IMG/VR virus record: IMGVR_UViG_2675903368_000015
Length of the DNA stretch: 12,331 bases
Direction: 5' to 3' (one strand)
DNA from: a virus
Taxonomy: Duplodnaviria; Heunggongvirae; Uroviricota; Caudoviricetes
Shown here: positions 1 to 9,837 of the stretch, piece by piece
Layout of the letters: each line of letters starts with the position of its first letter
Numbering within the stretch: the first letter of the stretch is position 1
Translations under genes and position numbers: made by a program
Notes under the pieces: model-generated
Database searches by the model: none
What the model saw: the letters and a program-made list of their open reading frames with translations, nothing else
What the model was told of the DNA's origin: nothing

Positions 1-276
1 GTGGCTTCTGTTTCTATCAGCTGTCCCTCCTGTTCAGCTACTGACGGGGTGGTGCGTAACGGCAAAAGCACCGCCGGACATCAGCGCTATCTCTGCTCTC
101 ACTGCCGTAAAACATGGCAACTGCAGTTCACTTACACCGCTTCTCAACCCGGTACGCACCAGAAAATCATTGATATGGCCATGAATGGCGTTGGATGCCG
201 GGCAACCGCCCGCATTATGGGCGTTGGCCTCAACACGATTTTCCGCCATTTAAAAAACTCAGGCCGCAGTCGGTAA
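1..276 (+). CDS. insA: IS1 InsA (transposition inhibitor, DNA-binding)
   Basis: 91-aa product [39 protein letters not shown]... with Cys-rich N-terminus and HTH region, ending HLKNSGRSR; GTG start, stop at 274..276. Confidence 0.9.
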
Positions 277-698
277 CCTCGCGCATACAGCCGGGCAGTG
301 ACGTCATCGTCTGCGCGGAAATGGACGAACAGTGGGGATACGTCGGGGCTAAATCGCGCCAGCGCTGGCTGTTTTACGCGTATGACAGGCTCCGGAAGAC
401 GGTTGTTGCGCACGTATTCGGTGAACGCACTCTGGCCACACTGGAGCGTCTTCTAAGCCTGCTGTCGGCCTTTGAGGTCGTGGTATGGATGACGGATGGC
501 TGGCCGCTGTATGAATCCCGCCTGAAGGGAAAGCTGCACGTAATCAGCAAGCGTTACACTCAGCGAATTGAGCGGCATAACCTGAATCTGAGACAACATC
601 TGGCAAGGCTGGGACGGAAGTCACTGTCGTTCTCAAAATCGGTGGAGCTGCATGACAAGGTCATCGGGCATTATCTGAACATAAAACACTATCAGTAA
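195..698 (+). CDS. insB: IS1 insB reading frame; the transposase is made as the InsAB' fusion by -1 frameshifting from insA
   Basis: 167-aa ORF in the -1 frame relative to insA, overlapping its 3' end; sequence ...[28 protein letters not shown]...[15 protein letters not shown] matches IS1 InsB. Confidence 0.85.
252..258 (+). promoter_or_regulatory. IS1 programmed -1 ribosomal frameshift heptamer A-AAA-AAC
   Basis: Sequence ttaaaaaactc; in the insA frame the codons are TTA AAA AAC, so the heptamer at 252..258 sits exactly where the insB frame overlaps. This is the known IS1 recoding signal. Confidence 0.8.
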
Positions 699-798
699 GT
701 TGGAGTCATTACCCAACAGTTTTATCAGGACCTACGATATATTATATAACAACAAGCCGCCCATTACCCAATATGAGGGTATTAGCGGCAATGTAAAA

Positions 799-1293
799 TC
801 AGAACAGTCCTTTAACTGAACTGGCCACGCTGTTAAGGGATGATGTGACCTTATCTTTGAAGCCGGACAGCATATCACTGAACGATGAGGATTGCAGACG
901 CTCCCGCAAATCCTCATCACAGCGTTCAAGGGTCAGTGAAAATTCTATCTTTTTCGCCTTACCGTAGCGATCAAACTCGGAACGGGTCGTATTCGTTTCA
1001 GTCAGTACATACATGCCGTAAATCTGCCCGACACCATCAATCAGAGGCCAGGGGCGTCCTGTATATGCCTGTGTGGTCAGCAACGAAAGCGACACTTCGC
1101 CACCTGTAATTTCAGGATAAAGCACGCCGGAAAGCACGATGCGATCATCACCTGCGCCGATATACTGCCAGCTTGCTGAACGGTTAACGCGTTCATTTTT
1201 CACATGCCGCCAGCTTTTGTTTTGCTGTAACTGCTGATGCGGCAATGTGCGCAGCTCAAAAACAAACATGCCGTAGATCATCATCATGGCCAT
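799..1293 (-). CDS. U: P2 gpU-like tail protein
   Basis: 164-aa product with ...SWRHVKNERVNRSASWQYIGAGDDRIVLSGVLYPEITGG...TGRPWPLIDGVG... resembling P2 gpU as I recall it; lies directly downstream of the tape measure gene on the same strand, as U does in P2. Confidence 0.75.
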   Translation of the reverse strand: MAMMMIYGMFVFELRTLPHQQLQQNKSWRHVKNERVNRSASWQYIGAGDDRIVLSGVLYPEITGGEVSLSLLTTQAYTGRPWPLIDGVGQIYGMYVLTETNTTRSEFDRYGKAKKIEFSLTLERCDEDLRERLQSSSFSDMLSGFKDKVTSSLNSVASSVKGLF

Positions 1294-7771: not shown

Positions 7772-8794
7772 TTAATACGCATTTAATTTAAATTTGTATT
7801 TGCCTTCTATGTAATGGATAAATTCAATTATGCTTTTTTCTATCGCATCTAATATATGAATATATCCATCCCGATTTAAGGTCCTATCCAACTCAAAGTG
7901 ATGAACTATCCCATGTCTATATTGTATGATTTCAGAAATTCGATTCTCAAGAAAATCAACTGATTTTCCAATTCTTTTTTTCTTATAAAGAATCGCTCTC
8001 ACATCTATATCCAGCCACTCTTTATATGCTTTGTTTAGGTGGGTTAAGTTTTGAAAAGTGTAATTTCTTGCAATAACACTTTCTATTGAAATATTTCCTT
8101 TCTCTATCTCAAGCAGAATATCAAAATCAACTTTTTGCTTATACGATGTTCTTTTTGCTATTGCGAAAGGATCGTACTTTATAAGTATTTGAAAAGCTCT
8201 AGAGAAAAAGTATTCAAACATAGCAACCGCAAAAGGTACTAATCCATTATATATAACTCTACTGGGATCCATACATTGCATGTAATCAAAGTATTCGGAT
8301 AAACCGCCATCTTCCGGTAGGTTTAATTTAATAGAAGGTTCAGGTAAGGCATGTTTAACAGCGGAAATCTCATGATGGACATGATTAAATATTGAAGAAA
8401 TGCCACGACTGATCGGACTACTAGAATCCTTCCATAGAGGAGCGTACCTATTTTTCCCATAATCACCTATAAGTGTTCCACCAAAAAGACTCCTTGCGCC
8501 TTTTAGAACATCATTAAGCATTTTTACATCATGCCAACTAGCGCTATATAAATTACGCACATGCAATGCCCATTTATTACCAGATATGTGTAATTCGTCA
8601 TTTGAAACAGGATATATATCAGCCGAAACTCCATCTGTAGATTTGAAGTCCGTATCATCAAACCAAGAGTAATTCAACGTTCCTTGGGGCCATTCCCTCA
8701 AATGTTTACACCTTTTAAAACCTAAATTTTCAAGGTAATTTTTAAGTTCGTTTCTAGTTGCTTTTTTAGGGTACAGCGTTATATCTCTTCCCAT
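7772..8794 (-). CDS. Hypothetical protein, 340 aa, AT-rich inserted gene between D and ogr; function unknown
   Basis: Long uninterrupted ORF on the strand opposite D and ogr; AGGTG RBS about 8 nt upstream of the ATG at 8794; base composition visibly AT-rich compared with the flanking tail genes. No family recognised by eye; contains RHGIVHH near the C-terminus. Confidence 0.75.
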   Translation of the reverse strand: MGRDITLYPKKATRNELKNYLENLGFKRCKHLREWPQGTLNYSWFDDTDFKSTDGVSADIYPVSNDELHISGNKWALHVRNLYSASWHDVKMLNDVLKGARSLFGGTLIGDYGKNRYAPLWKDSSSPISRGISSIFNHVHHEISAVKHALPEPSIKLNLPEDGGLSEYFDYMQCMDPSRVIYNGLVPFAVAMFEYFFSRAFQILIKYDPFAIAKRTSYKQKVDFDILLEIEKGNISIESVIARNYTFQNLTHLNKAYKEWLDIDVRAILYKKKRIGKSVDFLENRISEIIQYRHGIVHHFELDRTLNRDGYIHILDAIEKSIIEFIHYIEGKYKFKLNAY

Positions 8795-8985: not shown

Positions 8986-9246
8986 ATGTTCCGTTGTCCG
9001 CTTTGTGGCGCATCTGCCCGTATCCGCACAAGTCGTCCGGAAAATGATTCAAACACCGTGCGGCAAAAGTATTACCAGTGTAACAATCTGGAATGCGGCG
9101 TATGCTTCTCAACACTGGAAGCTTTCCATAAATTCACATCGAAACACGCCTCCGGCGTTCACTCTTCAGAAGGTATCCCGTGGCATGAGCTACCAGCTTC
9201 ACACAGGGGAAACAATCAGATGAGTTTGCCTTTACCTCAGAATTAA
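8986..9246 (+). CDS. ogr: Ogr/Delta-family zinc-finger late transcription activator
   Basis: 86-aa product MFRCPLCGASARIRTSRPENDSNTVRQKYYQCNNLECGVCF... with the Cys-X2-Cys ... Cys-X4-Cys pattern and overall similarity to P2 Ogr (MFHCPLC...ARTSR...YHQCQN..C...F...); AAGGGAGG RBS 5 nt upstream. Confidence 0.8.
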   Translation: MFRCPLCGASARIRTSRPENDSNTVRQKYYQCNNLECGVCFSTLEAFHKFTSKHASGVHSSEGIPWHELPASHRGNNQMSLPLPQN

Positions 9247-9436
9247 CAAGCAGAATTGCCGGAGTAACAAAAAAGCGATAGATTACGCGCGGGTGCCTTT
9301 CGGCTGATGGTCGGAGGGAATACCCGAAGGCCAGATGTGGAAAGGCCCCGGAAAACACTTTTGTTTAACCGAGGCCCTAACCGTCTACCCTAAGCAAGTG
9401 AAAGGTTAGCGCCTCTCCGGAAAAGGAGCAAGTGCT

Positions 9437-9577
9437 ATGTCGCAAAAATCGCTTACAGCCATCACGTTCTGCGTGACGGTAATCCTCATCATCTGGATGT
9501 TGCACGGTTCGCTGTGCGAAATACGGATGAGTTTCTGGGGAGCGGAGTTTGCGGCGTTCTTACAGTGTAAGCAGTAA
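9437..9577 (+). CDS. Hok/Gef-family type I toxin-like small membrane protein (46 aa), not in the supplied ORF track
   Basis: Hand-translated: MSQKSLTAITFCVTVILIIWMLHGSLCEIRMSFWGAEFAAFLQCKQ. One hydrophobic helix followed by SLCEIR and AAF, as in plasmid R1 Hok (...[27 protein letters not shown]). AAGGAG RBS 8 nt upstream. Confidence 0.6.
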   Translation: MSQKSLTAITFCVTVILIIWMLHGSLCEIRMSFWGAEFAAFLQCKQ

Positions 9578-9586
9578 GGAAACCGC

Positions 9587-9608
9587 GACGGGGGAGTAAT
9601 CCCCCGTC
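9587..9608 (+). other. Perfect 9-bp stem-loop (gacggggga gtaa tcccccgtc) just 3' of the hok-like ORF
   Basis: Perfect inverted repeat with a 4-nt loop and no following U tract; could be a 3' mRNA fold-back or stability element as in hok mRNAs, or a Rho-dependent stop. Confidence 0.4.
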
Positions 9609-9658
9609 AATCGGTTGCCAGGGTAAGGTCGATAAGGCACCCTATCTCACGGCTCTAA

Positions 9659-9694
9659 ATGCAAAAATTCCATGAAACTGTGGGATTTTTGCAT
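9659..9694. repeat. Perfect 10-bp inverted repeat ATGCAAAAAT-N16-ATTTTTGCAT
   Basis: Arms at 9659..9668 and 9685..9694 are exact reverse complements; lies in the intergenic region upstream of the two-gene cassette. Confidence 0.5.
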
Positions 9695-9749
9695 CACTAC
9701 TGATACAGATCTGCCCTTCTATATGTCTCACTCTATACCAGCTAATCAA

Positions 9750-9778
9750 TTGACACTTATCAATAAAAAAAATCTGAT
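9750..9778 (+). promoter_or_regulatory. Weak candidate promoter for the downstream cassette (TTGACA-N17-TCTGAT)
   Basis: Perfect -35 hexamer TTGACA at 9750..9755, but the best -10 at 17-nt spacing (TCTGAT) is poor; AT-rich context with an A8 tract. Confidence 0.2.
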
Positions 9779-9837
9779 AAAATCAAAATGTTTTGTAACA
9801 AATATCAACTCGTATTGATCCAAAGGAGGCGGATTAC

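Follow-up and report, generated by a model that had tools for sequence, protein, structure and literature searches.

The DNA analysed here, a single stretch of 12,331 nucleotides that we refer to as the window, carries a short open reading frame downstream of the phage gene ogr that resembles genes for Hok toxins. In the textbook account of such genes, mok must be translated for hok to be expressed at all, and this translation is also the target of the antisense RNA Sok. This locus therefore raises the question of whether the frame belongs to a type I toxin-antitoxin module of the hok/sok kind and, if so, how that module might be switched on and off when no mok can be recognised beside it.

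The hok gene and its genomic setting

The two genes with which the analysis begins are the following.

8986-9246: ogr, matching Pfam Ogr_Delta at 52.4 bits; it precedes hok and is itself preceded by a gene for a 340-aa protein on the minus strand
9437..9577, plus strand: hok coding sequence, with an ATG start and a product of 46 aa, MSQKSLTAITFCVTVILIIWMLHGSLCEIRMSFWGAEFAAFLQCKQ, in which a hydrophobic helix is followed by GSLCEIR...AEFAAFLQCKQ

The original prediction placed a 46-codon frame with a good ribosome-binding site at 9437..9577, and the frame was present exactly there, with AAGGAG at 9423-9428, 8 nt ahead of the ATG. Its product had been described as Hok-like. A profile alignment bore this out: residues 7-44 matched Pfam HOK_GEF (PF01848) with E = 3.7e-07 and 30.1 bits, where the gathering score is 22. 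The scores against the NCBIfam models for the HokA equivalog (NF007290, 35.8 bits against a cut-off of 89) and the Hok subfamily (NF007279, 23.6 bits against a cut-off of 73) did not reach their cut-offs. Because both fell so far short, we assign the product to a separate subfamily rather than to HokA or the named Hok. A protein search returned 68 relatives, and all of those with a source name were called Hok/Gef family protein. The full-length relatives were 46 aa long and came from Escherichia, Shigella, Salmonella and Klebsiella, with 13 invariant columns that included C27 and the C-terminal AE.AA.LQCK. At the DNA level, 82 distinct related loci were compared, drawn from Escherichia, Salmonella, Citrobacter and Klebsiella, and 81 of them keep the 46-codon frame unbroken. 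Near-identical hok genes (74-100% peptide identity) were also observed on three contigs labelled Planococcaceae, Vagococcus and Xanthomonas pisi (L007, L008 and L011), for which enterobacterial contamination of the assemblies is the likeliest explanation.

The gene had been presented as missed. This holds for the list of open reading frames used at the time, but not for public records: RefSeq has WP_000078920.1, 'Hok/Gef family protein', at the matching position in E. coli IHE3034, and phage records in RefSeq label the gene 'MokW-like host killing'. The window peptide is also identical to entry 1628, in cluster 72, of a 2026 preprint (10.1101/2025.08.07.668861). The hok gene is thus not new, being already annotated in RefSeq and in many E. 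coli genomes and already catalogued. The preprint tested two cluster-72 representatives on induction, 72_1621, which differs from the window peptide by one residue, and 72_1589, which is of the Stx-phage type. Both were counted as toxic, and only three other homologues are named as non-toxic in the text (10.1101/2025.08.07.668861). By analogy with the one-residue variant, the toxicity of the window Hok is credibly established by proxy. The same study found hok to be enriched in prophages (10.1101/2025.08.07.668861).

The window is E. coli chromosome, and the 394 nt around hok were 100% identical in many complete genomes, for example that of IHE3034. Upstream of hok lie P2-type tail genes for gpU, the tape measure, the tail tube, the sheath and gpD; on the 3' side of the module there are a gene for a zinc-ribbon membrane protein, a TagO/VasI-like gene and flk. 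DNA related to the hok locus was found in ~1750 of 5426 complete E. coli genomes, and homology to more than 1000 E. coli genomes ends at 9650, which marks the limit of the conserved hok module. A Salmonella P2-like prophage has the identical order gpU-gpD-ogr-hok and adjoins host genes. Further copies of the module were found at lambdoid tail-fibre ends, as tandem pairs and in Stx phages. Since the copies occupy varied prophage sites, the module is best described as portable prophage cargo. We consider it probable, jointly with the mechanism proposed below, that a hok/sok-type module is carried here by an E. coli P2-like prophage, at its right end and beyond ogr. Possible roles for such cargo would include stabilisation of the prophage, help with lysis and exclusion of other phages.

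Two other features of the prophage were observed. An IS1 copy occupies the left edge of the window (1-770), with an InsA-like ORF at 1-276 and InsB at 195-698 (Pfam DDE_Tnp_IS1, 251 bits), and is separated by ~30 bp from where the tail gene gpU ends (799-1293, minus strand). IHE3034 carries an invertase gene at this place, together with part of a tail-fibre gene, so that in the strain of the window the prophage is disrupted at least at this point. The 340-aa gene between gpD and ogr (7772-8794, minus strand) is annotated as hypothetical. Its product gave a sub-threshold match to HEPN_RiboL-PSP (21.4 bits against a cut-off of 28.4), and the gene could be a second item of prophage cargo or a defence gene. 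PADLOC returned no match for Hok, for this neighbouring 340-aa protein or for the products of the flanking genes.

The predicted hok mRNA, its folds and the predicted antisense RNA

The elements of the predicted mRNA are listed here in order of position.

9256..9284, plus strand: candidate hok promoter, with -35 TTGCCG at 9256-9261, a 17-nt spacer and -10 TAGATT at 9279-9284
9291..9650, plus strand: predicted full-length hok mRNA of ~360 nt, its 5' end placed by leader homology and its 3' end approximate, just past fbi
9291..9305, plus strand: tac, the 5' end GGGTGCCTT followed by TCGGCT, with fbi as partner in the full-length RNA or ucb in the truncated RNA
9340..9349, plus strand: ucb-like box, GAAAGGCCCC, with which tac would pair instead once the 3' end is trimmed
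9407..9437, plus strand: hairpin predicted to sequester the hok ribosome site and start, formed by TAGCGC:GTGCTA (which includes the A of the ATG) and CTCC:GGAG
9587..9608, plus strand: 3' hairpin, GACGGGGGA-GUAA-UCCCCCGUC, a perfect 9-bp stem
9611..9625, plus strand: 3' segment whose partner is 9386-9401, where the 5' tail of Sok would meet its target; this pairing belongs to the full-length RNA only
9627..9642, plus strand: fbi, GGTCGA followed by AAGGCACCC, the 3' partner of tac
9639..9650, no strand assigned: ACCCTATCTCAC, the final 12 bp of the conserved hok module, overlapping fbi, where homology to other genomes ends

Comparison of the upstream leader with known hok loci, proposed together with the original prediction, gave a likeness. 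The 160 nt at 9291-9450 on the plus strand matched Rfam RF01794 over the full length of the model, at 51.9 bits and E = 1e-10, under the gathering score of 59. At gathering thresholds Rfam returned no match in the whole window, and the hok-leader match appeared in E-value mode only; matches to sR1, CsrC and a flavivirus stem-loop, with E from 0.1 to 7.5, were treated as chance. RF01794 bears the name 'sok' and matches the hok-sense strand; its consensus begins like the 5' end of hokC mRNA and runs to the hok AUG. Because the consensus reads in the hok sense, the family models the hok leader, not the antisense Sok.

As position 1 of the model aligns there, the 5' end of the mRNA was placed near 9291, 7 nt past the conserved TAGATT. 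This -10 element, TAGATT or TAGAAT, lies 6-7 nt upstream of GGGTGCC and is conserved in the relatives. The candidate promoter matches 8 of 12 consensus positions and was hence not listed by the scanner, whose limit is 9. The promoter and terminator scan of 9150-9800 returned no promoter, and its sole terminator-like site was the 9587-9608 hairpin, read on the minus strand. Both the hok and the sok promoter were placed by homology and conservation, not by consensus score. On the 3' side no U-rich terminator follows fbi, and the end of the mRNA is given as approximate. The unit had originally been taken to end at 9620; since fbi lies at 9627-9642, the functional unit runs to ~9650, and the module reaches 30 nt past those earlier coordinates.

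Folding of the RNA 9291-9650 gave -160.1 kcal/mol, compared to -118.9 ± 5.3 for shuffled sequences (z = -7.75). To this fold we compared relatives gathered from genomes and viral contigs, which amounted to 82 distinct loci, 51 of them aligned at <97% mutual identity; the scan of genome contigs supplied 7 loci only, and most of the diversity came from a pattern scan of viral contigs. Across the 51 relatives, 90.5% of the cells of the full-length fold were paired, compared to 39-44% when the 3' partners were slid by 1-3 columns, although the fold was derived from the window sequence and the percentage is inflated accordingly. Changes on both sides of a pair occurred in 202 cells, compared to 25-73 in the slid controls, and such compensatory changes are not explained by that bias.

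The fold-back of tac onto fbi defines hok mRNAs (PMC9841398). In the minimum-energy fold of the window RNA this closure comprised 15 bp, with GGGUGCCUU pairing with AAGGCACCC. The tac sequence GGGTGCCTT was found in 46/51 relatives, and the tac/fbi helix was 92.1% paired, with compensatory changes in 4 pairs and covariation at alignment columns 34-37. The helix between 9386-9401 and 9611-9625 was 80.7% paired and had compensatory changes in 7 of its 13 pairs. The 9407-9437 hairpin was 93.6% paired, and its changes were one-sided only. The perfect 9-bp stem-loop predicted at 9587..9608 was confirmed: a fold that included the flanks gave -23.6 kcal/mol (z = -5.16), and in the relatives the hairpin was 99.3% paired with compensatory changes in 5 of 9 pairs. 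It does lie past the hok frame, as had been noted, but it is an internal 3' hairpin of the mRNA, not the mRNA end. By analogy with R1 hok, it is likely to be the stop for 3' exonucleolytic trimming and hence the 3' end of the active, truncated mRNA.

The truncated RNA was modelled as 9291-9612, cut past the 3' hairpin. In its fold tac pairs with ucb, in a helix that was 94.6% paired in the relatives and had two pairs with compensatory changes. Columns 34-35 covary with both the ucb side and the fbi side, a three-way covariation. Together, the tac/fbi and tac/ucb helices show the covariation pattern expected of mutually exclusive pairings that are both under selection. The conserved 5' leader fold looked for after the original prediction is thus present among the 51 relatives, in both of its alternative forms and with compensatory changes. 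The truncated fold also pairs GAGGC/CUAACC (9371-9382) with GGUUAG/GCCUC (9404-9415). This helix was 95.4% paired, with one-sided changes only; that it frees the hok start is compatible with the model but not proven by covariation.

The predicted antisense gene consists of two elements.

9337..9395, minus strand: predicted Sok RNA of ~59 nt with approximate ends, in which an 18-nt 5' tail leads to a hairpin, GGCCUCGG...CCGGGGCC, with a short 3' tail that contains U after it
9403..9431, minus strand: candidate sok promoter, with -35 TTGCTC at 9431-9426, overlapping the hok ribosome site, a 17-nt spacer and -10 TAACCT at 9408-9403

The original prediction had not been able to locate the antisense gene from the sequence alone; homology to sokB and sokC together with conservation allowed a candidate to be placed, from ~9395 to 9337 on the minus strand. 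In K-12, the 5' ends of sokB and sokC lie 48-49 nt upstream of hok, and their promoters overlap the hok ribosome site. The candidate sok promoter in the window is laid out like that of sokB, and the start of Sok is therefore predicted at ~9395. This promoter matches 6 of 12 consensus positions and was not listed by the scanner. Among the relatives its -10 was TAACCT in 47/51 and TATCCT in 3/51, the spacer was 17 nt in 48/51 and the -35 was TTGCTC in 38/51.

The predicted Sok hairpin folded at -23.2 kcal/mol in the antisense direction (z = -2.77), compared to -16.3 in the sense direction, and its stem pairs were canonical in 395 of 407 cells when read as antisense, compared to 333 of 407 as sense. 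The pair 9348:9372 was canonical (G·U or G-C) on the antisense strand in all 51 relatives and on the sense strand in 7, with a C·A mismatch in the other 44/51. Such a difference between the strands suggests that a functional RNA is made from the minus strand. Opposite the Sok tail, positions 9377-9396 were hypervariable, with 32 variants among 51 sequences, as would be expected if paralogous copies avoid cross-talk. Two Salmonella enterica sequences (L019 2501-3131 and L020 2501-3135) contain tandem 46-aa hok loci ~490 bp apart; the Sok-tail targets of each pair differ, consistent with duplicated modules avoiding cross-talk.

In a partition-function model of the full-length RNA, the ribosome site and AUG were unpaired with a mean probability of 0.28; for the truncated RNA the value was 0.36, and it was 0.27 when 9337-9395 was blocked in this shorter form. 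Accessibility was higher in the truncated than in the full-length RNA in 39/50 relatives, and higher in the truncated than in the blocked RNA in 46/50, these sequences being related and not independent. The direction of the modelled change fits a relay within the RNA driven by Sok, but the effect is small, and the relay is put forward as plausible only.

Two observations concern the DNA at the end of the module. In E. coli AVS0282 (L141 1005-2512), a 1.5-kb insert lies precisely at the end of the hok module, at the equivalent of 9639-9650 in the window. It carries a gene for a RES-family NAD+ phosphorylase, has inverted-repeat ends of ~50 bp and stands between two direct copies of the 12 bp ACCCTATCTCAC. 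The insert resembles a small mobile element of the cargo type, for which these 12 bp, overlapping fbi, would serve as the site. In the window itself, an inverted repeat, AAUGCAAAAAUUCC...GGGAUUUUUGCAU (9655-9695), lies just beyond the conserved module and before the zinc-ribbon gene. It has no clear U tail on either strand, and it might end hok transcription at this particular insertion site.

Proposed control without mok

The region in which mok would be expected contains two further features.

9371..9382, plus strand: GAGGC followed by CTAACC, with GAGG at the place of the mok ribosome site of hokB and hokC and no start codon after it; the window has CCGAGGCCCTAACCGTC here
9391..9409, plus strand: stop codons in all three frames, TAA at 9391, TGA at 9399 and TAG at 9407

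An open frame overlapping hok but lacking a convincing start had been part of the original prediction, and this description was accurate: the frame is open at 9394-9570 and has no ATG, GTG or TTG before 9514, leaving no usable mok. Between the stop codons at 9391-9409 and position 9423 there is no ATG, GTG, TTG, CTG, ATT, ATC or ATA. The GAGG is retained in 44/51 relatives, almost none of which has a start codon within the next 16 nt. No frame starting with ATG, GTG or TTG reads into the hok ribosome site in 51 of the 82 distinct loci, and the others have scattered, inconsistent starts. The same scan recovered mokB and mokC as positive controls. Nothing fills the canonical mok start position across the subfamily, whose upstream ORFs show no conservation either. 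Frames from an ATG at -130 or -103, from a TTG at -46, a 24-codon ORF and a 3-codon GTG frame were considered as substitutes for mok and rejected, none of them being conserved. Hok loci without mok were not described in the literature searched. In all other respects the locus is standard, and its lack of mok is the single exception.

The reading of the locus as a type I toxin-antitoxin module of Hok type, made from the window alone, is supported by the family match, the leader and the covariation of the fold-back. We hold with good confidence that the locus is a hok/sok module with a switch between full-length and truncated RNA and with no mok. Transcription of both RNAs, the 3' trimming, the mode of action of Sok and the biological role are steps that we infer, and we propose that they would follow one another in this way. 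The weak promoter at 9256-9284 would give rise to an mRNA of ~360 nt, from 9291 to ~9650. In this full-length RNA, tac and fbi would be closed, the 9407-9437 hairpin would enclose the hok ribosome site and AUG, and 9611-9625 would mask the Sok contact region at 9386-9401. With the start and the Sok contact region both paired, ribosomes would not translate the RNA and Sok would not bind it. Both 3' partners would be lost as the RNA is slowly trimmed from its 3' end to the 9587-9608 hairpin. In the trimmed RNA, tac would pair with ucb and 9371-9382 with 9404-9415, which would loosen the hairpin over the hok start. Unstable Sok, made from ~9395 to 9337 on the minus strand, would then bind 9337-9395 and keep the toxin off for as long as Sok is made. 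Once the supply of Sok stops, the 46-aa Hok would be made and would damage the inner membrane.

As the locus has no mok, Sok cannot act here by blocking mok translation. Between the end of the predicted Sok duplex and the hok ribosome site downstream there are at least 27 nt. The duplex might be cleaved by an RNase III-type activity, or Sok might withdraw 9371-9382 and so let the sequestering hairpin form again; the two could also operate together. We propose, tentatively, that the hok loci of 'cluster 72', which encode 46 aa and occur in E. coli and Salmonella prophages, are a natural branch of hok/sok that lacks mok, in which Sok exerts its control through decay or an RNA relay, without translational coupling.

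The main rival explanation takes the absence of mok at face value: the locus would be a silenced relic that lost its mok start, in which Hok is never translated and which persists as a prophage passenger like several inactivated chromosomal hok loci of K-12. Reviews describe mok translation as absolutely required for hok expression. In R1, mutation of the mok start codon abolishes Hok synthesis and suppresses toxicity, and translation of mok up to the hok ribosome site is required (PMC9841398). The window offers no mok start, and stop codons end all three frames ahead of the hok ribosome site; the K-12 gene mokA, which adjoins IS150, is recorded as a pseudogene. A relic, however, would not be expected to keep its antidote and its switch. 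The antisense promoter and hairpin are conserved, the compensatory changes in the helices, including those with both tac partners, indicate selection on the regulatory switch, and the coding frame has stayed intact across four genera in all but one of the distinct loci. We therefore disfavour a gene silent for want of mok and regard it as unlikely.

A second alternative keeps the coupling and replaces mok: ribosomes that finish a short ORF just ahead of the hok ribosome site would open the hairpin, and initiation on this ORF would be the step that Sok blocks. The candidate runs from ATG 9335 to TAG 9409, and its 24 codons end 14 nt before the hok ribosome site, with the start at the edge of the predicted Sok duplex. 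The ORF is present with ATG in only 7 of the 82 distinct loci and with GTG in 4 more; the ATG is missing in Salmonella-type loci, and the frame ends ~45 nt earlier in the Stx-phage copies. The commonest ORF near the site is instead a 3-codon GTG frame without a ribosome site. A cryptic substitute for mok thus appears very unlikely. In a third reading the hok frame would be open by chance, in a spacer between genes, and the hairpin would be the ogr terminator. This would suit the shortness of the ORF and the place of the hairpin downstream of ogr, listed by the scanner as terminator-like on the minus strand only, but this reading is refuted by the Pfam match above threshold, the 68 Hok/Gef homologues, the leader match and the covariation in a conserved, structured RNA of ~360 nt, and the hairpin lies 340 nt past the ogr stop with no plus-strand U run after it.

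For genome annotation the result favouring a hok/sok module is an ordinary one, as this is one of many prophage copies of hok. Public records annotate the coding sequence only; the present mapping adds the predicted antisense gene, limits for the mRNA and the elements of the switch. The absence of mok is a modest and directly testable lead, and the value of the result is modest overall: an abundant and conserved mok-less subfamily offers a natural test of hok regulation without mok, against the textbook requirement.

Comparison with known systems

The locus in the window shares with R1 hok/sok (parB), hokB/sokB and hokC/sokC a small membrane toxin of the Hok/Gef family and a long structured mRNA. 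In common with R1 hok, hokB and hokC it has the tac/fbi closure, the alternative tac/ucb pairing and the 3' hairpin, and as in the R1 and K-12 loci its predicted Sok is antisense to the leader, with a candidate promoter overlapping the hok ribosome site. The motif CCGAGGCC occurs at the same place in the leader of the window locus and of the R1 and K-12 loci. In hokC it is followed by 7 nt and ATG, and in hokB by 5 nt and ATG, whereas in the window locus no ATG follows. The toxin is also shorter, at 46 aa compared to 49-52 aa in the R1 and K-12 systems. Cluster 72 of Escalera-Maurer et al. contains the same peptide, and that preprint deliberately left Mok, Sok and the mRNA elements unanalysed (10.1101/2025.08.07.668861).

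In tisB/istR-1 and similar type I systems the antitoxin pairs far upstream of the toxin start (PMC4147584), as it would here with a gap of at least 27 nt. With such a gap Sok must, by analogy with tisB/istR-1 (PMC4147584), act indirectly. The likeness is one of analogy only: there is no sequence relation, and IstR-1 is divergently encoded.

The hokW-sokW system of the Stx2 prophage Sp5 is likewise a prophage-borne hok/sok module (Takada et al. 2021, PMC8621323), and it helps lysis (PMC8621323). We considered whether the window locus is hokW and rejected this, as the primers and peptide in PMC8621323 show a paralogue of 51 aa. HokW begins MKQQKAM..., belongs to cluster 35 and is HokD-like. Because HokW is a different paralogue, the label 'MokW-like' in the phage records is a loose name only. 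Stx phages carry, separately from hokW, an 82%-identical copy of the window locus.
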